In this document: positions 2,840 to 12,369 of the stretch, piece after piece
Position numbering within the stretch: the first letter of the stretch is position 1
How the letters are laid out: each line of letters opens with the position of its first letter
Assembly: GCA_947573795.1 (NCBI GenBank)
Contig: CANPHE010000001.1
Location: 40,112-104,111, forward strand
Reading direction: 5' to 3'
Origin: an uncultured Alistipes sp.
Lineage (GTDB): Bacteria; Bacteroidota; Bacteroidia; Bacteroidales; Rikenellaceae
Length of the DNA: 64,000 nt
Notes under the pieces: model-generated
The model's database searches: none
What the model saw: only the letters and a program-made list of their open reading frames with translations
What the model was told of the DNA's origin: nothing
Position numbers and translations under genes: made by a program

Positions 2840-4198
2840 TTATTCGAATATTTCTACATAATTTTTGCGGTACTCACCTTTGACGATGCGGGTAAAGTAG
2901 CGCTGCTTGCTTAAAAATTTCTTGACCTGATCCTTCGAGAATCCTACCTTTTTCTCTAACAGTTCGTAAACTGCGGCGATTCGGAACGAGGGCGGCAGTG
3001 CATCGTAGGCTTTGCGCTGCTGCTCTGTCATCGAGATACGGATATCCTTGCCGTAGACGAGCTTGTGAATCTTGATTGCCTCCTGCCGGAAATACTCCAC
3101 CAGTCGGATCGCCCCCTCGACCGAATCCATCCCGACCGCAACTGGCTCACGCTCTTCGAGGGCGGCCCGCATTACCTCCAAGATAAGAGCGAAACGCAGC
3201 GCATAGGTATCCAACTTACAACATGCGTCGGCGTAGGTGTCGCCCATCTCCTCCTGTGTCCGGGGCCGGTATTCGTCATTGTGCCACGATAGCATACGTT
3301 GCAGGGCTTCGGGAGTGAATTCGATCTCGGTAGGTTGCGGGATTCCATCGGCATCCTTTTCCATTTCACGGTCGAGCAGTCGTAGGATCGCTTTTTCATA
3401 CTGTTCGGTCAATGCGGGGTCGATCTCCGAGGCCGACCAGTTGGGCATGGTCAGGTTCTCCGGAGCGGTGAACAGAAAGCGCGAGGAGAATCCGCTACCG
3501 GCTTTGTCGCGCGTGAAGAATTTATGCATGATCGCCGTCTGCATCGTGCCGATGATAGACACGGCGACCCGATGGATGTAACGGGAATCGACCGAAGCCC
3601 GGTTGATCGACTGCGGAAGTCCCGACCAGATCGTATTGAACGCTTCGGCGTCGGAACCGGTGTTGTAGCGGTTCATGTTTTCCAGAAAACCGTTCATCTC
3701 GTCGGCTACGATCGCCACGCCGCGCGGGTTGGCTTCCATGCTCCGGTAGAGCGCTTCCAGCGTCAGTTCATTCAGGATCGGAGTACGCAGAACCGGTTTC
3801 GGGCCGGGGTTCCCTTCGGCTTTGCGACGTCGGTATTCGGCCATCTCCTTTTTGTAGGCAGCAAAACGCCGGGCGCGAATCAATTCGAACGGTGCGAATG
3901 CCCGTTGGATGGGATGGCTCTTGCAGGTTCCGGGATTGCCGACCAGCACACAGTTGAGCGAGGCGATTGCCGTAAAGAGGTTTTTCATTTTCAGTTGAAT
4001 CGTGCTTCCTATTGCCGCAGCAAAAGCCGTCAGTATTGCCGTGGCGCTGAAATCGACCGGAAATCCCAGATCGCGGTGCAGGGCAAGAATCAGTTCGGCC
4101 AGCGGGCGGGGAAAAACGTCCTCGAACGGAAATACATTTTGTTTCGCTCCGACAGCGGTAGTCTGAACCGCCGCCGGAGATTTTACAACCTGTTCCAT
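2840..4198 (-). CDS. DUF3987/VirE-like P-loop protein (mobile-element replication/helicase-like)
   Basis: Track ORF 2840..4513, trimmed to the ATG at 4196-4198 (MEQVVKSP...) because the extension overlaps the upstream HTH gene. The N-terminal FPFEDVFPRPLAELILALHRDLGFPVDFSATAILTAFAAAIG is a DUF3987-type signature. Walker-A-like GNPGTCKS and Walker-B-like VAIVADE are present. Confidence 0.8.
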   Translation of the reverse strand: MEQVVKSPAAVQTTAVGAKQNVFPFEDVFPRPLAELILALHRDLGFPVDFSATAILTAFAAAIGSTIQLKMKNLFTAIASLNCVLVGNPGTCKSHPIQRAFAPFELIRARRFAAYKKEMAEYRRRKAEGNPGPKPVLRTPILNELTLEALYRSMEANPRGVAIVADEMNGFLENMNRYNTGSDAEAFNTIWSGLPQSINRASVDSRYIHRVAVSIIGTMQTAIMHKFFTRDKAGSGFSSRFLFTAPENLTMPNWSASEIDPALTEQYEKAILRLLDREMEKDADGIPQPTEIEFTPEALQRMLSWHNDEYRPRTQEEMGDTYADACCKLDTYALRFALILEVMRAALEEREPVAVGMDSVEGAIRLVEYFRQEAIKIHKLVYGKDIRISMTEQQRKAYDALPPSFRIAAVYELLEKKVGFSKDQVKKFLSKQRYFTRIVKGEYRKNYVEIFE

Positions 4199-4203
4199 AG
4201 GGC

Positions 4204-4476
4204 CTATGCGTTTACGGGGATCATTGCCGCTTCGACATCGGACATCAGGAACAGGGTGCGTCTCCCGTTTTTCAGGCATCGGATCTCTCCCTGCCGTGTC
4301 ATTCGATGCAAAGTCGAATAACTGATGTGGAGCAGGTCGCAGACCTCCGAGCGGGAGAGGTAGCGATGTTCGGGCGGCTCCTTCATGCGGCGCAGTTCCG
4401 TAATCTCGGAGCGAAGCTCCTTCAGACAATCGTACAAGGCCGTGAGGTCGGCCTCCTGTAAAATCAAAGTTTTCAT
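4204..4476 (-). CDS. HTH_17 / excisionase-family DNA-binding protein
   Basis: Track ORF 4204..4551, trimmed to the ATG at 4474-4476 (MKTLILQ...). YLSRSEVCDLLHISYSTLHRMTRQGEIRCLKNGRRTLF is a MerR/excisionase-type HTH. Its stop is 5 nt upstream of the DUF3987 start. Confidence 0.8.
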   Translation of the reverse strand: MKTLILQEADLTALYDCLKELRSEITELRRMKEPPEHRYLSRSEVCDLLHISYSTLHRMTRQGEIRCLKNGRRTLFLMSDVEAAMIPVNA

Positions 4477-4587
4477 AATAAAAAAAATGTGGTTTACAGG
4501 TGCAAAGGAACAACCTGCCTCCGCCTCAGACACAATTTTGTGGTAGGACAAAAAAGAAGCGGGCGACCGTATGCCCGCTTCGTCTTG

Positions 4588-5571
4588 TCAGTTATCCGGC
4601 TGTATATCTTCTCGTTTGGCAATCATCGAAAGGCCTGCAATGTCCCATGCTCCGGTAAACTCCCGGCAGAAACGTTCGATCTTTTCCCGGCTGTCGGATC
4701 GTCCGTCCACCCGTCGCAGGAGGGATGCGACCATTTCCCGCGAATCGGTATAGTTGTCTATATCCGCATAACCGCACGTCGGGCCTCCCCGATGGCATTT
4801 GTCGATCAGTTTGCGGTAAACCTCCGGTGCGCCACCCCACAGCGAGGCCATAAGCGTTGCCGTGTGGGTGGCCCGCAGGTTGTTCAGGCCGAGCCGGTGC
4901 AACAGAAACAGTGTCAGAATTACCCGTTGCGTGTCGTTGATAGCGATTGTGCCCTTCCCGTATTTTCTGTCTGTGAACCGGGACAGGTGCGAGTTGATCT
5001 CCTCGCTTACACAATCGAAAACAGCGCTCGTATAGGCGTTCTTTATCCGGAGCTCCATATTCCGAAGCCGGGTTTGCAATTTTTCGACAGCGACGTGGAA
5101 TCCCTCCGTAAACCGGTCGTGTTGCCGGATGGTCGCATAAGCCCTTTTTCTCAGGGTGGCATAGAATACCGGATCGCAGAACAGGGCCGGTAGTGCCTGA
5201 CTGCATCGGATAAACACGTGATTCCGGTAAAATGTCCGGGCCTCGCCGTCTTCCGCCGGAATCAGTTTGTGCCGCCGGATTTCCTGTCCGGCAAGCAGAC
5301 GATAGCGTTGCAAGGCCGGAACGTCGGCGAAGAGATAGCCGCCGAAGATGGGATAGAGGTTGTTTGCTTCGGTAAAGCCCTGTTGCTGCCGATAGTCTGT
5401 TTCCCAATGCAGGAAGCAGGTGCAGAACAAGTCGGCAACAGACTGGGGCGTGGCTCGCTCCTCTTTGGCGATCAGGTCGAGGCCGAAGTCGAGCGCACAC
5501 AGATATTCGGCCATTTCAACGGCGTGTTCGAATGCGACGGGCCGTCCGTCGCGGGTCTCTATGGTGGTCAT
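4588..5571 (-). CDS. Hypothetical protein (327 aa) between integrase and excisionase-like gene; no domain recognised
   Basis: Track ORF 4588..5766, trimmed to the ATG at 5569-5571 (MTTIETRDGRP...), 8 nt downstream of the integrase stop. Amino-acid composition looks protein-like, unlike the overlapping R/P-rich alternative frames. Confidence 0.65.
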   Translation of the reverse strand: MTTIETRDGRPVAFEHAVEMAEYLCALDFGLDLIAKEERATPQSVADLFCTCFLHWETDYRQQQGFTEANNLYPIFGGYLFADVPALQRYRLLAGQEIRRHKLIPAEDGEARTFYRNHVFIRCSQALPALFCDPVFYATLRKRAYATIRQHDRFTEGFHVAVEKLQTRLRNMELRIKNAYTSAVFDCVSEEINSHLSRFTDRKYGKGTIAINDTQRVILTLFLLHRLGLNNLRATHTATLMASLWGGAPEVYRKLIDKCHRGGPTCGYADIDNYTDSREMVASLLRRVDGRSDSREKIERFCREFTGAWDIAGLSMIAKREDIQPDN

Positions 5572-5579
5572 GGGTTGTC

Positions 5580-7094
5580 TCAGTTGAAAAATTTGTATTG
5601 TTTGAGTGCGACCGCCTTTTCCTCGGCGGTGCAACGGATATAGCGTCGGAAATTGGCCTCGGTCGTGTTGCCGGTTGCCGACATGATAAGTGCTGCGGGA
5701 ATATCGTTCTTGAAAGCATTTGTGGCAAATGAACGGCGTGCCGTGTGGGTCGTTACGAGGTCGCATTTCTCGTAACAGCGTATCTGCCGTTCTCCGCCCA
5801 ATACCTCTGTCAGATAGACCTTGGAGGTAATGCCCGCCTTACGGCATAGCTGTTTAAGCATCCGGTTCGTTGCCTGATTGCTTTGTGTCGGCGGCGGACA
5901 GTTGTTGTAACGGGCGAAGATGCTGCGCAGTTTCGGGCAGATCGGCACAGCGATCGTCCGGTTCGTTTTCTGGGTCGTGATGACGATGATTCCTTCGTCG
6001 AAACGGATGTGGTGCGGTTGCAGCCGTCCGATGTCGCTGAACCGCAGTCCGGTGTAACAGCCGACCAGAAATGCGTCGCGCACCTCGGCCTGCGAGGGCG
6101 GCAATTCCAGATCATAAAGCAGTTGCAGTTCATCTTCATTCAGGTAGATGGTTTCGACCGTTTCCTGAAAAACCTTGAATTCGCGGCGCTTGAAATCGGA
6201 GTTGAGCGTATAGTTGTTGTCGAACGCGTAACGCAGGAACGTGCGGATATTCTTCACGAATTTGCCGATTACATTCGGACGGTAGCGGCCCCGGCTGTGG
6301 GTCGTCTCGTTCAGATATTTGACGAAGTCGTTGTAGAAATCCAACGTCAGCGATTCCAGCGTCAGCCGGATGTGCCGCGCTTCGGCATAACGGCGCAGGG
6401 CACTTTTGGTCGATAGGTAGCTGCGGATCGTGCCGGGCGTCAGGCGTGTGCCCGCGCCGTTGAGGATGGTCCCCTCCCGGCAGGCGTTGATGTAAAAGTC
6501 GATGTATTCGAATACGTCGCGGAATGTCCGGGCCTTGCTTGCCTCTTGTCCGAGCTCGCATTGCAGTTCGTTGCGTACCTGATCCGCCGAGGCACGGATG
6601 CCCTGTTGCTGGAAGCGGGCGAGAACAGCCAGTACGGCGTTGGTGATCTTGTCGATCTCGGTGTTGATGTTGTCGAGCCGGACACGCAGACGGGGATTGC
6701 CTTTCAGATCGGCATTCCGTTTCGAATCGACGATCGCACGGCCCTCCGTGCTATCCCAATGTTTCGGCTCAATTTTGAACGTCGGAGCAAGGGCATAGGA
6801 GATGCGGACGTGGTTGATGGTCATACGCATCCGGACCGAGGTAAGCGGCTGTGCCGGATTTTTCAGAGAGAAGCGGATCATCCGGCGGGTATAGAGGTCT
6901 TGTTTCTGACGCATGGTCATTCGATTGAATGGTTTCTGCGTACTTTTTTCAAGGGTCGTTCCTTGCAGTTGCCACGTCTTGTCGCAGTCCGGGTGATTTG
7001 TCCGCAGTAGCTCCTGCGGTATGACGTCGGCGTCAGATGCTGACGTCAGGCATGTCAGGTCGTTGATGTTGTAAATGATTTCCGGTTTCTTCAT
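5580..7094 (-). CDS. Tyrosine site-specific integrase (Bacteroidales integrative-element type)
   Basis: 504-aa ORF. It has an Arm-type N-terminal region (VRMRMTINHVRISYALAPTFKIEPKHWDSTEGRA), a SAM-like core-binding region and a catalytic domain with TGLRFSDI and the HTARRSFATN (H-x-x-R) motif. The true start may be an internal Met (MTMRQKQ or MIRFS). Confidence 0.9.
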   Translation of the reverse strand: MKKPEIIYNINDLTCLTSASDADVIPQELLRTNHPDCDKTWQLQGTTLEKSTQKPFNRMTMRQKQDLYTRRMIRFSLKNPAQPLTSVRMRMTINHVRISYALAPTFKIEPKHWDSTEGRAIVDSKRNADLKGNPRLRVRLDNINTEIDKITNAVLAVLARFQQQGIRASADQVRNELQCELGQEASKARTFRDVFEYIDFYINACREGTILNGAGTRLTPGTIRSYLSTKSALRRYAEARHIRLTLESLTLDFYNDFVKYLNETTHSRGRYRPNVIGKFVKNIRTFLRYAFDNNYTLNSDFKRREFKVFQETVETIYLNEDELQLLYDLELPPSQAEVRDAFLVGCYTGLRFSDIGRLQPHHIRFDEGIIVITTQKTNRTIAVPICPKLRSIFARYNNCPPPTQSNQATNRMLKQLCRKAGITSKVYLTEVLGGERQIRCYEKCDLVTTHTARRSFATNAFKNDIPAALIMSATGNTTEANFRRYIRCTAEEKAVALKQYKFFN

Positions 7095-7146
7095 AATGGC
7101 TTTCGTTTGGCACGCTGCTCCACAAAAGCCGCACCTTTGCGTCTGC

Positions 7147-7314
7147 CATTTGACATTTGTCAGTCATCGAATATCCCTGAAAAAGTTCTCCAGCCCCGGA
7201 CTGTCCGAAGCTGGAGAATCGTAAAATTTTTTCTGAAAAATTCCATGATATTTGACAAAACAAAATTTGTCAGGCATTTTGTCAGAAACCGGGTGCCGGA
7301 GTTTGACACAAAGA
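7147..7314. promoter_or_regulatory. Cluster of TTTGACA / TTTGTCAG motifs (three each) just upstream of the integrase 5' end; candidate recombinase/regulator binding sites
   Basis: The region reads catTTGACAtTTGTCAGtc (7147-7168), atatTTGACAaaacaaaatTTGTCAGgcatTTTGTCAGaaac (about 7249-7292) and gagTTTGACAcaaag (about 7300-7314). Two of these form TGACA-N-TGTCA inverted pairs. Confidence 0.4.
7186..7232. terminator. Hairpin (9-bp stem) flanked by A/T runs; candidate bidirectional terminator between the phosphoesterase gene and the integrase
   Basis: The arms are ttctccagc (7186-7194) and gctggagaa (7210-7218), with a 15-nt loop. The hairpin is preceded by gaaaaag and followed by aaaatttttt. 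Confidence 0.4.
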
Positions 7315-7334
7315 CGGTTTCTTCGGAGGTTTTA

Positions 7335-7937
7335 TTATATCGTAATAACGACAGGATGATTGACCAGTTCGTAATTCTCATTCACAACAGCACCGTTCAC
7401 AAAGGTTGTCCGGGATGTTTTATATACGCCGTATGCCTCGTGTGTATGGCCGAACAAATGGTAGCGAGGGTTGATAATTTCTACTTGCTTCCGTAAATCT
7501 TCATTCCCCATATTTGCGCCGAATGCTGATTTATCAAGAATTCCGAACGGCGGACAATGCGAAACCAGTATGTCGGTCTGTTGAGGAATCCGGACGATCT
7601 TTTCCGGATAGAGGTCTGCCCAGTGGATTTCGTCGGATAGAAAGAACGGGATTCCCCATATTTTCACACCTTCGATTTCTATACCGCTGTTGCATAGATA
7701 GTAGCAGTTATGCGGCATCCCTTCGATACCGGCTCCATCCAAACAATCGTCATGATTGCCTGCGATAAAGATTTTGTACCGGTAATTCAATTTCCCGAAC
7801 CATTCAATAAAATCGGTAATCTCCTCCTCCGTCCCGTTCCACGACAAGTCCCCTGCATGGATCAACATATCGGCCTGCGGCAGATTCTTCAACTCACAGT
7901 GTTTTCCATGCGTGTCGGATAGAAAGGCGATTGTCAT
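7335..7937 (-). CDS. Small calcineurin-like metallophosphoesterase (YfcE/MJ0936-like)
   Basis: 200-aa ORF with the full MPP motif set: LSDTHGKH, HAGDLS, AGNHDD, VSHCPP, GHTHE. Confidence 0.85.
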   Translation of the reverse strand: MTIAFLSDTHGKHCELKNLPQADMLIHAGDLSWNGTEEEITDFIEWFGKLNYRYKIFIAGNHDDCLDGAGIEGMPHNCYYLCNSGIEIEGVKIWGIPFFLSDEIHWADLYPEKIVRIPQQTDILVSHCPPFGILDKSAFGANMGNEDLRKQVEIINPRYHLFGHTHEAYGVYKTSRTTFVNGAVVNENYELVNHPVVITI

Positions 7938-8140
7938 TCTTGATAAGTGATTCGTTTTAGAGAATCGGTTTATAATGCGAACGATAATTTTGATGATTCG
8001 TTGCGAAAATCGGAACGGGTGTATTTTCTTATATCTTCATCTTACAGAGGGGTAATCATCGAAAGATGTAATCTTCTTTAATATTTTGAAAATTCATATT
8101 CTTTTCAAGGCTCATTTCTTCTTGACCTAACTTATTTTAG

Positions 8141-8181
8141 GATAAAAATAGGGTATGAAAATTTTTCAAAATTTCATACCC
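8141..8181 (-). terminator. Rho-independent terminator of the three-gene AT-rich operon
   Basis: The stem pairs gggtatgaaat (8151-8161) with atttcataccc (8171-8181). On the minus strand it is followed by tatttttatc. It lies about 75 nt downstream of the RES gene stop. Confidence 0.55.
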
Positions 8182-8257
8182 TAAGATTGGGCAAGAACGA
8201 CTATCAAAATGACATAATCCCTTTACGATCTGATATTTTAATTTATGGGCATTGTTA

Positions 8258-9313
8258 TCATCCTTTATTGGATTCTTTTATGCTGGCATATTCCATGTCG
8301 ATTTTGTTAATTTCTACTGTTTTCGCATTTTTAAATTGGAATTTTTGATCGTCGAAAAAAGCATAATTTATTCCCCCTGTATGCATTGCACTCGCGTATT
8401 CAACTCCATGCACTTTTAATGAGGATTTAATGTACTCACAAAGATATTGAGTTGGCAGGTACTCTAAATCAGAGTCAGTTTTACGCAATGGTTTGGATAG
8501 AGCCTCTCTAAAATGATTAAGAATAGTTTTATTTGTTACATACTCTTGCAAGTTGATGTCTTCAATAAACGGGCTGATATTGTGAATATCATTTAATGAT
8601 ACAATAATAATATCTTCTACAAGTTCAAATTCTCCAATGCAAACATAATCTAAAAAAGATGCTCTAACCTCAAATAATGTTGTTTTGGGATCACTCGCAA
8701 GATACAAGTATGATATACCTTGAGGATTAGCTCGTCCTGAAGTTGTCTTTTGATAAGGTGGTTTACCTAAGTCAGATGCAGGATTAGAGAACCCATTTAT
8801 ATTATCACATATTCGAGCCCGGAAAAAAGATGTCCCTGCCTTTAATGTTTTGGTGTGTTTTTGCAATAGCTTGCTAACGATGTCACGGACAATTGCGTTG
8901 TTGTTGATGAAAAATCTATTAGTGCATTTAATTTCATTAACAAAATCTTGCCATATTTTATCGGAGTCGCTAGTCCCATCAAATTTTTCCTTAACGTGTT
9001 CTCCTTTTAGACTCTTATCAAGATAGTCAATTAACAGGTAATTTGTAATCGATTTTGCTATATCATCATTTGCGAAAATATTCCATTCTTTTTGTATTGT
9101 CGTGCTTAGACAATCTGCCACTGGATTATCCGTTTCTTCATACAAATCAAATAGCGGAACAAAGTAATCTAACAAATCCTCAATATCGACAATCGGTACA
9201 TTTTTTTGGTAACAGCAATTGCACGTTCCTATATTGCCTCGTGATAGGTCTTTGATAATCGGTTGTATTTCTACATCAACAAAACAATTCGGACAACAAG
9301 TCATTCTTGGCAT
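8258..9313 (-). CDS. RES-domain protein with N-terminal Cys-cluster (zinc-ribbon-like) and a middle region of unknown function; predicted NAD+-targeting effector
   Basis: 351-aa ORF. The RES signature is in canonical order: TSFFRAR (R165/R167), GRANPQGISYLYLASDPKTTLFEVR (E215), YLPTQYLCEYIK, GVEYASAMHTGGINYAFF (S308). The N-terminus has C6, C7, C10 and C31, C33, C34 (CCPNC...CNCC). The start is 1 nt after the upstream gene stop. Confidence 0.9.
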   Translation of the reverse strand: MPRMTCCPNCFVDVEIQPIIKDLSRGNIGTCNCCYQKNVPIVDIEDLLDYFVPLFDLYEETDNPVADCLSTTIQKEWNIFANDDIAKSITNYLLIDYLDKSLKGEHVKEKFDGTSDSDKIWQDFVNEIKCTNRFFINNNAIVRDIVSKLLQKHTKTLKAGTSFFRARICDNINGFSNPASDLGKPPYQKTTSGRANPQGISYLYLASDPKTTLFEVRASFLDYVCIGEFELVEDIIIVSLNDIHNISPFIEDINLQEYVTNKTILNHFREALSKPLRKTDSDLEYLPTQYLCEYIKSSLKVHGVEYASAMHTGGINYAFFDDQKFQFKNAKTVEINKIDMEYASIKESNKG

Positions 9314-9314
9314 T

Positions 9315-10268
9315 TTATTTCGTTGAAAAATGATTGTAAACTAATTGTAGGTGATTTAAAATAGATAATTTTTTAATACTACCTAAACCGGGATAGGATT
9401 CATCATGGTATATTTGTCTCAATTGTTGACAGGCATCTGTATTCATTTTTCGTTCGTCAATAAATGGAACTAACTTTGATAATGCCTCTGCAACTTTACC
9501 TGGAACATCTGAGTTGTCATCATTGCTGTCTGAAACAAAATGGTGAATCCGAAAAACATTGTCTGGAGAATCCAGGTATGTCAAATGGACTGCAACCGCA
9601 TAGGGCAAAAATCCACCTTCGCTATAATTATTCCCTATCGTTACATAATCTCCATATCCAGAATAGCCTTCTGATTCAAAAAATAAATGATCGTCACTAA
9701 AGAACTCATCGGCTGGATTTGCATAATCTGCATTCTTTTCTTTTGAGTTAAATCGATCCGCCAATATAACTAACTCGGTCCCTAGTGGTCTAATATTTCG
9801 GGATAATCGTCTAATAGTACTATCGTCGTATAAAATTGCATATTTAATAGATGTAGAGTTTAACAACTCTTTAAAATCTAATTCGTTTCTTGGCTGATCG
9901 GTTATTACCAATGAAATATTTTCTAGATTATAGTCCTTGATAAAGGATATTATTCGCTTCAGATTAACCTGCTCGTTGATAATAAATGTCGGCTGGTAGT
10001 TGTCATACTCTTTTAATTTATCGATAATGTTGTTTATTAAATTATCATATTTTTCAGATGATATTTCTCCGCATTTAGGGTTCAAAATAATGTTGAAATT
10101 GACACCATTTTGTACTAAAGAATCTATTGTTTTTAGTAATGTAGAGTTAACTTGTTTGATCGGTTCAATGATGGGAGATATAATATCCTTTTGCTTATAG
10201 AAGGAACACATATCCCTTAATGCAATCAATTCAAATTGTTTCCCTCTCAAATACGGAAAATATTTCAT
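9315..10268 (-). CDS. sce7725-like / Beta-protein (PF14350-like) family protein
   Basis: 317-aa ORF starting MKYFPYLRGKQFELIALRD. From memory, this N-terminal motif is diagnostic of proteins annotated 'sce7725 family protein' and resembles Beta_protein family members. An HMM check is needed. Confidence 0.8.
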   Translation of the reverse strand: MKYFPYLRGKQFELIALRDMCSFYKQKDIISPIIEPIKQVNSTLLKTIDSLVQNGVNFNIILNPKCGEISSEKYDNLINNIIDKLKEYDNYQPTFIINEQVNLKRIISFIKDYNLENISLVITDQPRNELDFKELLNSTSIKYAILYDDSTIRRLSRNIRPLGTELVILADRFNSKEKNADYANPADEFFSDDHLFFESEGYSGYGDYVTIGNNYSEGGFLPYAVAVHLTYLDSPDNVFRIHHFVSDSNDDNSDVPGKVAEALSKLVPFIDERKMNTDACQQLRQIYHDESYPGLGSIKKLSILNHLQLVYNHFSTK

Positions 10269-10280
10269 GACGTTGTGGTT

Positions 10281-11150
10281 TTAGATGCTTTCCAATTGTA
10301 TATTCAATACGCTCTCAAATCGGTCATAATACTCTGCTTTAAAATCAAGATTCCAAAACAGGTACTTAAACTCAGGAGGGACAATGGTGTCTGATTTGAA
10401 TAAATCCTTTTCCTTAATCGAGCGTTTCTTTAATTCAATAACGACCAAATCATGCAATGCGCAAACAGGGATTTCATGGAATCTTTCCTTGCATATGGAA
10501 AAATATTTGACCGGCGTTGTCTGCGGAATTTCTCCAAAATAACTTTGAAGTACATTCGTATACTCCTGTTTACGCAAACTCCTAATTATTACAGAACTAT
10601 CTAAATGGGCTATATCTTTTTGAGCCTCTCGAATGGTATGTAAAGCTCCTTTATCAGTTAAAGTAATAATACCAACTTTGTCGTCTATTTCTTTTGAAAG
10701 TTTCTCTACTAAATCCGCGTGCGTTACAACATATATATGCTCAAATACTTTTTTGTAATCTGCAATTTGACTTTCTAAACGATAAAGATTATCCAATTCT
10801 GTCTTTATTTCAAATACTTTGCTCGTACCATTCAACAAAACTAAATCCGCTATCGAACGGCCTATCTTAAATTCGTTAAGAATCGTGGTGGTATTCAAAC
10901 TATATTTGGCCAATAGCAATTTGTTTATGATAGAATTTTTATAGACATATTCGTTACGATATTCTTTTAAAAGCTTTCTATAGGCATATCTGTAAAACTC
11001 TCCAAGGGTATGAATAGATGAATCTTCGACCCCGTATTTCCTATATTTGGCTAATACGTACGAGTAATCATTCTCCACCAATAATTGCAGGAACTTACTG
11101 GTGGAGAATAAATTTGCATAACAGCGAAATATGGTTTTTTCTATAGGCAT
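10281..11150 (-). CDS. sce7726-like protein with PD-(D/E)xK nuclease-fold motif
   Basis: 289-aa ORF. ILNEFKIGRSIADLVLLNGTSKVFEIKTELD supplies E93...D102...E114-x-K116, a classical restriction-endonuclease-like core. From memory, its position directly upstream of the sce7725-like gene matches the sce7726/sce7725 pairing. Confidence 0.8.
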   Translation of the reverse strand: MPIEKTIFRCYANLFSTSKFLQLLVENDYSYVLAKYRKYGVEDSSIHTLGEFYRYAYRKLLKEYRNEYVYKNSIINKLLLAKYSLNTTTILNEFKIGRSIADLVLLNGTSKVFEIKTELDNLYRLESQIADYKKVFEHIYVVTHADLVEKLSKEIDDKVGIITLTDKGALHTIREAQKDIAHLDSSVIIRSLRKQEYTNVLQSYFGEIPQTTPVKYFSICKERFHEIPVCALHDLVVIELKKRSIKEKDLFKSDTIVPPEFKYLFWNLDFKAEYYDRFESVLNIQLESI

Positions 11151-11161
11151 GCAAAAAATTC

Positions 11162-11180
11162 CAAATATACAACAAATATA
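11162..11180 (-). promoter_or_regulatory. Two candidate Bacteroidota -7 boxes (TAnnTTTG) upstream of the operon
   Basis: Minus-strand TATATTTG occurs at 11162-11169 and again at 11173-11180, that is 12-30 nt upstream of the ATG at 11150. No clear -33 TTTG was seen. Confidence 0.35.
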
Positions 11181-11429
11181 GTGAATAAATTCGAATCCCT
11201 ATCACATAGAGAAATATATGCCTTAATATCCTTCCACGATAGCCTGCAGCGCAAATTAACAAGAAAGGACAAAGGATCCACTATAGTGCCCGAATAACAG
11301 CCACAATATAACGCTTCAAAATTTCAAATGAAACATATTTCTGCAAATAGCTGAAAAGACAAGTGTTACGAGAGAGCAGGATAGACTATTAACGGTCTAA
11401 TTTAGTGGGCGCTTCAGACCTCCCAATTG

Positions 11430-11465
11430 AAAAAGCAGTCGACCGAGCGGTCGACTGCTTTTTCG
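11430..11465. terminator. Perfect 14-bp hairpin flanked by A-run and T-run (bidirectional terminator) at the right edge of the AT-rich island
   Basis: The sequence is aaaagcagtcgacc-gagc-ggtcgactgctttt (11431-11462). Confidence 0.6.
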
Positions 11466-11613: not shown

Positions 11614-12369
11614 TCAATGTCCGAATACCCAGTTCAGACGTGCGTCGGTATAGCTTTGGGTACAAGTTTGTTCATGCGTCCATCCCTCCTGCGTTTCGAG
11701 CACGGCCTCTCCGCCGGATTCGACGAGTTTCTCCACGAACTGGCTTACGAGGCCGATATCCATGATTCGATCGGAGCTTCCCATAACCGTGAGCACCGGC
11801 GTTCCGGAGACATTTTCGATCCGGCAGCCCGACGGGTTCCCGGCTACGGGCATCGCTGCGGCAAATAGGCCCGGGTAGGCGGACAGCATGCTCCAAGTTC
11901 CGGTTCCGCCCATAGACCCTCCCAAAATGTAGATGCGTTCGGCCTCGGCCTCGCCCTGGAGGATATGCCCGTCGATCAATGCTTTCAGCACGTCGTTCAT
12001 CGCCCCGCCCCACGATCGCTCTTTCGGACATTGGGGCACGATAACGACGGCGGCGATACGCTGTGCGGCCAGATAGCTGCTTATCGCGCGTACGCCCGGC
12101 TCCTGCACCGGGCGCTCGTTGTCCGCACCCTTGCTTGTGCCGCCGTGCAGATAGAGTACCAGGGCGGTTTTCCCCCGTTCGTTTCCCGCTGCGATGACGG
12201 CTTTGCGGTAGGGTATGACGAGGCCCGAATAATTCCCGGATTCCCGGGTGAATACGATCTGCTCGGTCGTCGGTCCGTCGGCTTCCGGCTTCGGAGTCGC
12301 CGCATCCTCTTTCGAGCACGATGCGGCGACCCACGATGTCAACGCCAACAGCAGCATTCCGCATTTCAT
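11614..12369 (-). CDS. Alpha/beta-hydrolase family esterase lipoprotein
   Basis: 251 aa. It has a lipoprotein signal (LLALTSWVAASC), a GGSMGG nucleophile elbow (GxSxG) and LYLHGG. Its start overlaps the upstream stop in ATGA (12366-12369). Confidence 0.85.
   Translation of the reverse strand: MKCGMLLLALTSWVAASCSKEDAATPKPEADGPTTEQIVFTRESGNYSGLVIPYRKAVIAAGNERGKTALVLYLHGGTSKGADNERPVQEPGVRAISSYLAAQRIAAVVIVPQCPKERSWGGAMNDVLKALIDGHILQGEAEAERIYILGGSMGGTGTWSMLSAYPGLFAAAMPVAGNPSGCRIENVSGTPVLTVMGSSDRIMDIGLVSQFVEKLVESGGEAVLETQEGWTHEQTCTQSYTDARLNWVFGH

Follow-up and report, generated by a model that had tools for sequence, protein, structure and literature searches.

The HEPN/RES-NTD1 domain was defined by Anantharaman et al. 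in 2013, in a survey that also published the architecture of zinc ribbon (ZnR), NTD1 and RES domain, including a further N-terminal zinc ribbon (PMC3710099). Proteins of 300-600 amino acids (aa) combining this domain (PF18870) with RES were named aRES by Osterman et al., who found that three enterobacterial representatives confer phage protection on E. coli, accompanied by growth arrest, that during infection they convert nicotinamide adenine dinucleotide (NAD+) to nicotinamide and ADP-ribose-1''-phosphate (ADPR-1''-phosphate), and that active-site mutants lose the defence (bioRxiv 10.64898/2026.01.28.702374). According to the same preprint, in which PF18870 was assigned by HHsearch at >80% probability, aRES homologues occur in ~4% of genomes, and the stand-alone aRES, of which a single gene suffices for defence, are self-controlled until infection (bioRxiv 10.64898/2026.01.28.702374). 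The other relevant system is gop-beta-cII of satellite P4, which protects against lambda and P1 and whose Gop protein is toxic without beta (PMC9122126); it is set off by the phage orf184 (bioRxiv 10.1101/2023.04.06.535777). Here we analyze a 64,000-nucleotide (nt) stretch of an uncultured Alistipes sp. (contig CANPHE010000001.1, positions 40,112 to 104,111; below, the window), in which a three-gene operon joins a homologue of the gop-beta-cII core to a candidate effector of the aRES type. This arrangement is found in at least 80 species of several phyla.

The features of the operon and of the surrounding element are listed in Table 1. As the first-pass annotation of the window had proposed, the RES gene shares one operon with the genes of a 317-aa and a 289-aa protein; these belong to the sce7725 and sce7726 families, respectively, and the order on the minus strand is sce7726, sce7725, RES. 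The end of the 289-aa gene is separated by 12 nt from the 317-aa gene. From the stop codon of the latter (9315-9317) it is 1 nt to the first ATG of the RES gene (9313) and 10 nt to the second (9304), and no terminator-like site with a strong stem was found inside the three-gene block. When the RES alignment was used to query GTDB genomes, one for each species, at least 596 encoding loci were obtained, and the best 80 were inspected for synteny. The genes sce7726, sce7725, and RES follow each other on one strand in 79 of these 80 loci, the exception being a 1.5-kb contig, and the median intergenic gaps across the trio loci are 3 and 1 nt. Judging by the record titles, most hosts are Bacteroidota/Bacteroidetes, the others including Bacillota and metagenome-assembled genomes titled Pyrinomonadales, Sphaerochaeta, Deferribacteres, and Gastranaerophilales. 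The trio is also present in an integrative and conjugative element (ICE) of Salmonella houtenae and on plasmids of Rhizobium, Moraxella, Shinella, and Ralstonia, and on those of the first three genera each gene of the trio already has a RefSeq name of its own. The three proteins co-diverge, their pairwise distance matrices being correlated with r = 0.88-0.91.

Table 1. Coordinates of the operon, its domains and the neighboring genes (positions in the window; aa, amino acids; AF2, AlphaFold2)
Feature	Coordinates	Strand	Basis or remarks
Gene 1, 289-aa sce7726-family protein, P4 cII homologue, PD-(D/E)xK-like motif	10281..11150	-	NCBIfam, PADLOC, BLASTP
Gene 2, 317-aa sce7725-family protein, predicted TIM-barrel-like alpha/beta fold, probable P4 beta counterpart	9315..10268	-	NCBIfam, AF2, PDB fold matches
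Gene 3, ZnR + HEPN/RES-NTD1 + RES protein, putative NAD+ phosphorylase effector	8258..9313	-	351 aa, probably 348 aa from 9304
Zinc-ribbon-like CxxC-x20-CxxC, residues 6-34	9212..9298	-	C7, C10, C31, C34 conserved
HEPN/RES-NTD1 (PF18870), residues 28-138, mostly helical	8900..9232	-	Profile matches of homologues; helices in AF2 model
RES domain with R194, Y204, E215, S308, N316	8324..8758	-	Pfam residues 186-330; start of the fold at ~154
AT-rich leader upstream of gene 1, probable operon promoter region	11151..11400	-	Two TAnnTTTG motifs
Calcineurin-like phosphoesterase, 200 aa, directly downstream of the RES gene	7335-7937	-	PADLOC PDC-S10, 1.2e-76
Tyrosine integrase	5580-7094
392-aa open reading frame	4588-5766
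HTH_17 excisionase-like gene	4204-4551
DUF3987 primase/helicase-like gene	2840-4513

What is new at this locus is the operon with P4 cII/beta-like genes, and the RES protein is not an orphan toxin. The fusion of domains, in which the first-pass annotation had seen the novelty, has been in print since 2013 (PMC3710099), and by bioinformatic definition the protein belongs to the aRES family. The 2013 survey does not mention the cII/beta-like sce7725/sce7726 neighbors (PMC3710099), and aRES has been described as a stand-alone gene, whereas here it is the third cistron of an operon in nearly all of the best loci. Table S2 of the preprint includes two trio genomes, Mangrovimonas yunxiaonensis LY01 (locus L072) and Aequorivita viscosa (locus L052), among the carriers of aRES (bioRxiv 10.64898/2026.01.28.702374), so the trio clade has already been counted as aRES without the operon being noted, and part of what counts as stand-alone aRES is a three-gene system. 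No paper mentioning sce7725/sce7726 together with RES, or the trio operon, was found in the searched literature, outside of which most subscription journals lie. Annotation tools are affected as well, the PADLOC 2023 models calling only the cII-like gene of the trio.

The RES gene is an uninterrupted 351-codon open reading frame (ORF), and since 238 relatives, nearly all of them 330-360 aa long, were detected in a search of 5.8 billion proteins, it is a real gene, far beyond chance. The true start of the protein is likely M4, because 76 of 81 orthologues have an aligned Met at this position (ATG at 9304) and the protein is 348 aa long in the public annotation. The Pfam domain RES (PF08808) is matched with E 1.2e-13 and 51.8 bits against a cut-off of 23.2. 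Conservation was read from alignments of 20, 50, and 81 sequences, in which the invariant residues are R165, R167, G193-R194-A-N196-P197, Y204, E215, Y285, Q289, S308, and N316, with R194 falling in the GRANP motif. A loss of the catalytic arginine, glutamate, and serine, which by the first-pass annotation would have refuted its reading of the locus, was looked for, and R194, E215, and S308 turned out to be invariant in the 81 orthologues; together with Y204 and N316, they are also kept in the stand-alone homologues. By this alignment, the catalytic-type R/E/S set is retained.

The predicted structure of the full-length protein agrees with this assignment. The AlphaFold2 model, built from the 50-sequence alignment (predicted local distance difference test, pLDDT, 89.7; predicted template modeling score, pTM, 0.83), is helical over its N-terminal half and alpha/beta over the C-terminal one. 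Its top PDB fold matches in Foldseek are MbcT, NatT, the Res protein of P. putida, and ParT (E 1e-5 to 5e-3), which confirm the RES fold; they are followed by VPA0770 and then by the ADP-ribosyltransferase (ART) domains of diphtheria toxin and tankyrase. Compared with the PDB by sequence, the family profile gave nothing significant.

The N-terminal half of the protein, of which about 150 aa had been regarded as an unknown region, can largely be assigned at the family level. Residues ~28-138 correspond to PF18870: the domain is matched by all 20 aligned homologues (best 2.8e-7), the precomputed pair PF18870 + PF08808 is present on many of the 238 relatives, and the window protein itself has a sub-threshold hmmscan match (E 0.27) that covers positions 5-127 of the 131-position profile. 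Most of the previously reported cysteine cluster stands. The cysteines C7, C10, C31, and C34 are kept in 78-81 of the 81 orthologues and in the stand-alone homologues, and the conservation of Cys6 reaches at least 90% in the alignments of 20 and 50 sequences, the part that did not hold being Cys33, which is peculiar to the window sequence. Nor does the N-terminal region recur with other effectors, as had been thought possible: with the first 150 aa as a phmmer query, 79 of 79 matches of at least 300 aa carry RES, not HEPN, no fusion to another effector was seen at phmmer sensitivity, and the odd shorter matches look truncated or chimeric.

By the bioinformatic definition, with PF18870 recognized by hmmscan in the family, the window protein is thus of the aRES type. 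It has the same PF18870 + RES architecture, its 351 aa lie within the 300-600 aa range, and the stand-alone homologues share with it both the CxxC...CxxC pattern and the R/Y/E/S/N residues. Stand-alone ZnR-NTD1-RES homologues, 20-32% identical to the window protein, are found, for instance, on an E. coli IncFII plasmid (457 aa), a Bacillus tropicus plasmid (385 aa), and a Comamonas plasmid (374 aa).

The first gene of the operon links it to P4. From the sequence comparisons, the 289-aa sce7726 protein is a clear homologue of P4 cII: it matches the NCBIfam model sce7726_fam (1.1e-54) and the PADLOC model 'cll' of the gop_beta_cll system (7.7e-21), is 29% identical to satellite P4 cII over 130 aa (BLASTP, E 5e-14), shares phrog_984 with it, and carries the precomputed domain PF26915 Phage_P4_cII. 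The invariant residues of the family, E67, D102, E114-x-K116, D120, and Q128, form a PD-(D/E)xK-like signature, and from this motif alone the protein may be a nuclease. PDDEXK_3 gave one weak match, in a single sce7726 homologue (E 0.09); the window protein has no PD-(D/E)xK match in Pfam and nothing significant in the PDB by sequence.

The second gene encodes a member of the NCBIfam family sce7725_fam (2.3e-88), whose closest named relative, from an uncultured Alistipes, is 89% identical. Its AlphaFold2 model (pLDDT 92.2) consists of alternating beta/alpha units, and the best PDB matches are TIM barrels, with E 3.5e-4 to 1e-2 and template modeling (TM) scores of 0.3-0.5; by sequence, nothing significant was found in the PDB. 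A cryptic Xre/DUF2384 fold in this protein, which would have made the locus a divergent classical toxin-antitoxin (TA) pair, was looked for in the model and by fold search and was rejected, the predicted structure being alpha/beta, TIM-barrel-like, and without a helix-turn-helix. Since about 20 polar residues are invariant in the family, including R8, E13, E35, N63, N179, D207, H228, H243, K299, K300, and H306, the conservation suggests that sce7725 is an enzyme or a ligand-binding protein. In a BFVD fold search with the same model, the top match, and the only strong viral one, was A0A5J6TRS2 of Gordonia phage Powerball, an uncharacterized protein of 379 aa (E 6e-10, TM 0.68), for which no link to the Beta family was established; P4 beta is not among the listed BFVD matches.

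The first-pass annotation had called this neighbor Beta-protein-like, and the sequence comparisons lend that description weak support. The window protein does not reach the threshold of Pfam Beta_protein (PF14350), which is matched by P4 beta itself at 4e-56; in the sce7725 family, 6 of 50 members match it weakly, the best with E 0.028. In hhalign, the family and Beta_protein profiles share an alignment of 107 N-terminal columns with a probability of 14% and E 0.002, comparison of a profile with a single sequence gave 3% for P4 beta, and the two proteins are assigned to different PHROGs. In BLASTP, the similarity to P4 beta (E 0.007) is confined to 32 residues around the N-terminal motif YFPYLRGKQFE / YYPALRTRSAE, so that both share the pattern Y-x-P-x-L-R-x-[KR]-x-x-E. 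The genomic context points in the same direction. Next to the beta-family genes of Pseudomonas, Acinetobacter, and P4 there is a cII gene with PF26915, and upstream of them a small ORF; both families therefore pair with cII homologues, sce7725 standing beside sce7726, which supports the equivalence of sce7725 and beta. In the Pseudomonas and Acinetobacter beta loci the small ORF (143 or 109 aa) overlaps or abuts the beta start, as gop does in P4; these ORFs (L188 3563-3994, L191 3679-4008) have no Pfam match, which suggests that Gop-like small effectors are diverse.

We suggest, with a probability of about 0.55, that the operon is a gop-beta-cII-type abortive-infection antiphage system with an aRES NAD+ phosphorylase as its effector. 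Apart from the homology of the cII components, the P4 partner of cII, beta, and the sce7725 protein are both ~310-360 aa long with a shared N-terminal motif, and in both cases three genes lie beside an integrase on a mobile element. The systems differ in the effector, which in P4 is the 133-aa Gop with two hydrophobic N-terminal segments (predicted transmembrane helices, by inspection) and here a 351-aa cytoplasmic RES enzyme, and in the gene order, gop and beta facing a convergent cII in P4, whereas the cII-like, beta-like, and RES genes follow each other here. The RES protein was also considered as a Gop homologue; this was rejected, as the two do not align, and the operon contains no small Gop-like ORF.

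In the proposed mechanism, the sce7726 and sce7725 proteins would form the conserved core derived from the P4 cII/beta family. The TIM-barrel-like sce7725 protein, probably catalytic or ligand-binding, would restrain or gate the RES effector, possibly together with sce7726, and couple it to an infection cue; this gating is proposed by analogy, because P4 Gop is toxic without beta and the P4 system is triggered by a phage protein. The ZnR-NTD1 module may be the part by which the effector is held inactive or contacted. Once released, the RES protein would phosphorolyse NAD+ to nicotinamide and ADPR-1''-phosphate and arrest the infected cell, a chemistry that we propose because it has been shown for stand-alone aRES and for RES toxins such as MbcT. 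The defense role of the operon, the roles of the partners, and the trigger are thus those that the analogy would predict. The earlier suggestion of a control logic different from that of known RES toxins fits these data, given that stand-alone aRES are self-controlled and that the two partners are strictly conserved in the operon.

Several observations weigh against this reading. None of the PADLOC 2023 models matches the RES protein or the sce7725 protein. The homology of sce7725 to P4 beta, as judged from the sequence, is weak, so the Gop/beta analogy may not transfer, and with its many invariant polar residues sce7725 looks more like an enzyme than like an antitoxin that acts by simple binding. 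Stand-alone ZnR-NTD1-RES proteins work, or at any rate occur, without partners, and one of them, from Bacillus, is as close to the operonic RES proteins (32-33%) as those are to each other. Conversely, sce7726-sce7725 pairs are common without RES, and each module can live alone. Among IMG/VR contigs, 79 loci with an sce7726 relative were classed by their neighbors, with sce7725 or beta detected at E 1e-4: sce7725 is present without RES in 40 loci and together with RES in 8, neither sce7725 nor beta is detectable in 29, one locus is P4-like (with beta), and one is degraded. No conserved third gene was found after sce7725 in the non-RES loci of this set. As 29 of the 79 loci have no detectable sce7725 or beta at this threshold, cII-like proteins have a wider range of partners than was sampled here.

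These distributions bear directly on the main rival explanation, in which a self-sufficient sce7726/sce7725 pair, made up of a nuclease-like protein and a regulator, and a self-sufficient aRES are two independent defense modules that travel together, co-transcribed and functionally independent. It draws on the 24 distinct sce7726-sce7725 loci without RES, on the stand-alone ZnR-NTD1-RES genes of the E. coli, Bacillus, and Comamonas plasmids, and on the sufficiency of single aRES genes for defense (bioRxiv 10.64898/2026.01.28.702374). We nevertheless consider it rather unlikely, as the synteny holds in 79 of 80 loci across phyla with spacings of 1-3 nt or overlaps, and the proteins co-diverge with r ~0.9, whereas neighbors in defense islands normally reshuffle far faster. 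In a neighbor-joining tree of 112 distinct sce7725 proteins, 88 of which are RES-linked, only 6 state changes (gains or losses) have to be assumed, and 73 of the 88 RES-linked proteins form one pure clade; thus the RES gene joined the pair a few times and was then co-inherited.

It is less probable still that the operon serves to stabilize the mobile element as a TA or addiction module and has no dedicated antiphage role; in that case RES would be the toxin, and sce7725, alone or together with sce7726, would act as an unconventional antitoxin. The RES toxins of the RES-Xre, MbcT-MbcA, NatT-NatR, and ParT-ParS pairs have the RES catalytic fold and conserved residues in common with the window protein, and those among the PDB fold matches are classical type II TA toxins. 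Further, the operon is always on mobile DNA (an integrase-bearing element here, ICE, plasmids, and prophage-like contigs elsewhere), and P4 Gop/beta was first described as TA-like (PMC9122126). The type II RES-Xre systems have an Xre/DUF2384 (COG5642) antitoxin. The observation that the RES domain lacks this canonical partner at our locus is borne out, the neighbors belonging to the sce7725 and sce7726 families without any Pfam Xre match. Unlike the RES-Xre toxins, the window protein carries the ~150-aa ZnR-NTD1 extension, and its partners are PD-(D/E)xK-like and TIM-barrel-like. Against the addiction module, the same architecture is antiphage without partners (bioRxiv 10.64898/2026.01.28.702374), the homologous P4 system is antiphage too, and the immediate neighbor of the operon is a candidate defense gene; in any case, TA and abortive-infection roles are not mutually exclusive. 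Finally, it seems highly improbable that the RES domain is not an NAD+ phosphorylase and instead ADP-ribosylates a protein or nucleic acid, as ParT does with Prs: ParT is among the fold matches and RES belongs to the ART superfamily (PMC9503650), but two NAD+-degrading toxins, MbcT and NatT, head the list of fold matches, the only tested ZnR-NTD1-RES proteins make ADPR-1''-phosphate (bioRxiv 10.64898/2026.01.28.702374), and the invariant residue set is common to the stand-alone homologues.

The comparison with P4 allows a broader and more tentative proposal, which we regard as possible rather than probable. The cII-like and beta-like proteins may constitute a widespread, self-contained sensing and regulating core with interchangeable effectors, namely the small membrane protein Gop in P4, an otherwise self-sufficient aRES here, possibly a GNAT acetyltransferase in Enterococcus, and none in many prophages; the effector would be gated via ZnR-NTD1 by the TIM-barrel-like partner, acting as an enzyme or a ligand sensor. 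Were this true, the control logic would be new both for RES toxins and for gop-beta-cII. The operon offers a handle on the function of the cII-like and beta-like proteins, on the question of whether they form a portable trigger module with swappable effectors, and on the role of ZnR-NTD1 in silencing a RES NADase.

Other arrangements of these genes were observed as well. On Enterococcus faecium plasmid p114-2 (L093 2803-5010), a small D...ExK protein, sce7725, and a 170-aa GNAT acetyltransferase are encoded in a row, and a wastewater contig (L087 5105-7510) is near-identical to this locus. The small protein upstream of sce7725 has the motif D...E-x-K-T-x-x-D and is not detected by the sce7726 hidden Markov model; the GNAT may represent yet another effector associated with this core. 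Some prophage-like IMG/VR contigs (L110-L113, L117, L139, L140) have the inverted order, with sce7725 upstream of sce7726. In two others (L102/L123 5006-7319), genes for a 492-aa AAA_21/AAA_15 ATPase and for a 280-aa protein without a Pfam match come after sce7726 and sce7725; these two probably represent a separate, adjacent ATPase-based defense pair.

The operon lies in an island of ~3.4 kb with 32-34% G+C in a genome of ~55-65% G+C, and is low-GC cargo of an integrase-bearing mobile element that spans ~2840-11400 of the window. Past the operon, the minus strand continues with the phosphoesterase, tyrosine integrase, HTH_17, and DUF3987 genes. This layout, with an integrase, a primase-like gene, and cII/beta-type cargo beside the integrase, is reminiscent of P4-like satellites. 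Several gut-metagenome contigs (L003-L006) carry the same element, flanked by a hydrolase gene and the dprA side; no tRNA gene at the element border was found in the 64-kb window.

The phosphoesterase directly downstream of the RES gene belongs to PDC-S10, a PADLOC candidate single-gene defense family. In Metis MisA, the calcineurin-like domain has been shown to split NAD+ into AMP and nicotinamide mononucleotide (10.1101/2025.11.05.686725). MisA has an extra PUA-like sensor domain, which the 200-aa phosphoesterase of the window lacks. By analogy, two NAD+-directed defense genes may stand side by side at this locus.

In the AT-rich leader of the operon, two copies of TAnnTTTG, the -7 promoter consensus of the Bacteroidetes type, are located at 11162-11169 and 11173-11180, that is, 12-30 nt upstream of gene 1. 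The pair is suggestive of the operon promoter, chance matches being easy in AT-rich DNA; a sigma-70 promoter scan was discarded as uninformative for a Bacteroidota-type host. Further upstream, host-like GC content gives way to AT-rich DNA, and at this transition lies a strong hairpin with a 17-bp stem and T-runs on both sides (11428-11465 of the plus strand). It probably serves the neighboring hydrolase gene (11614-12369) as a bidirectional terminator and marks where the island ends.

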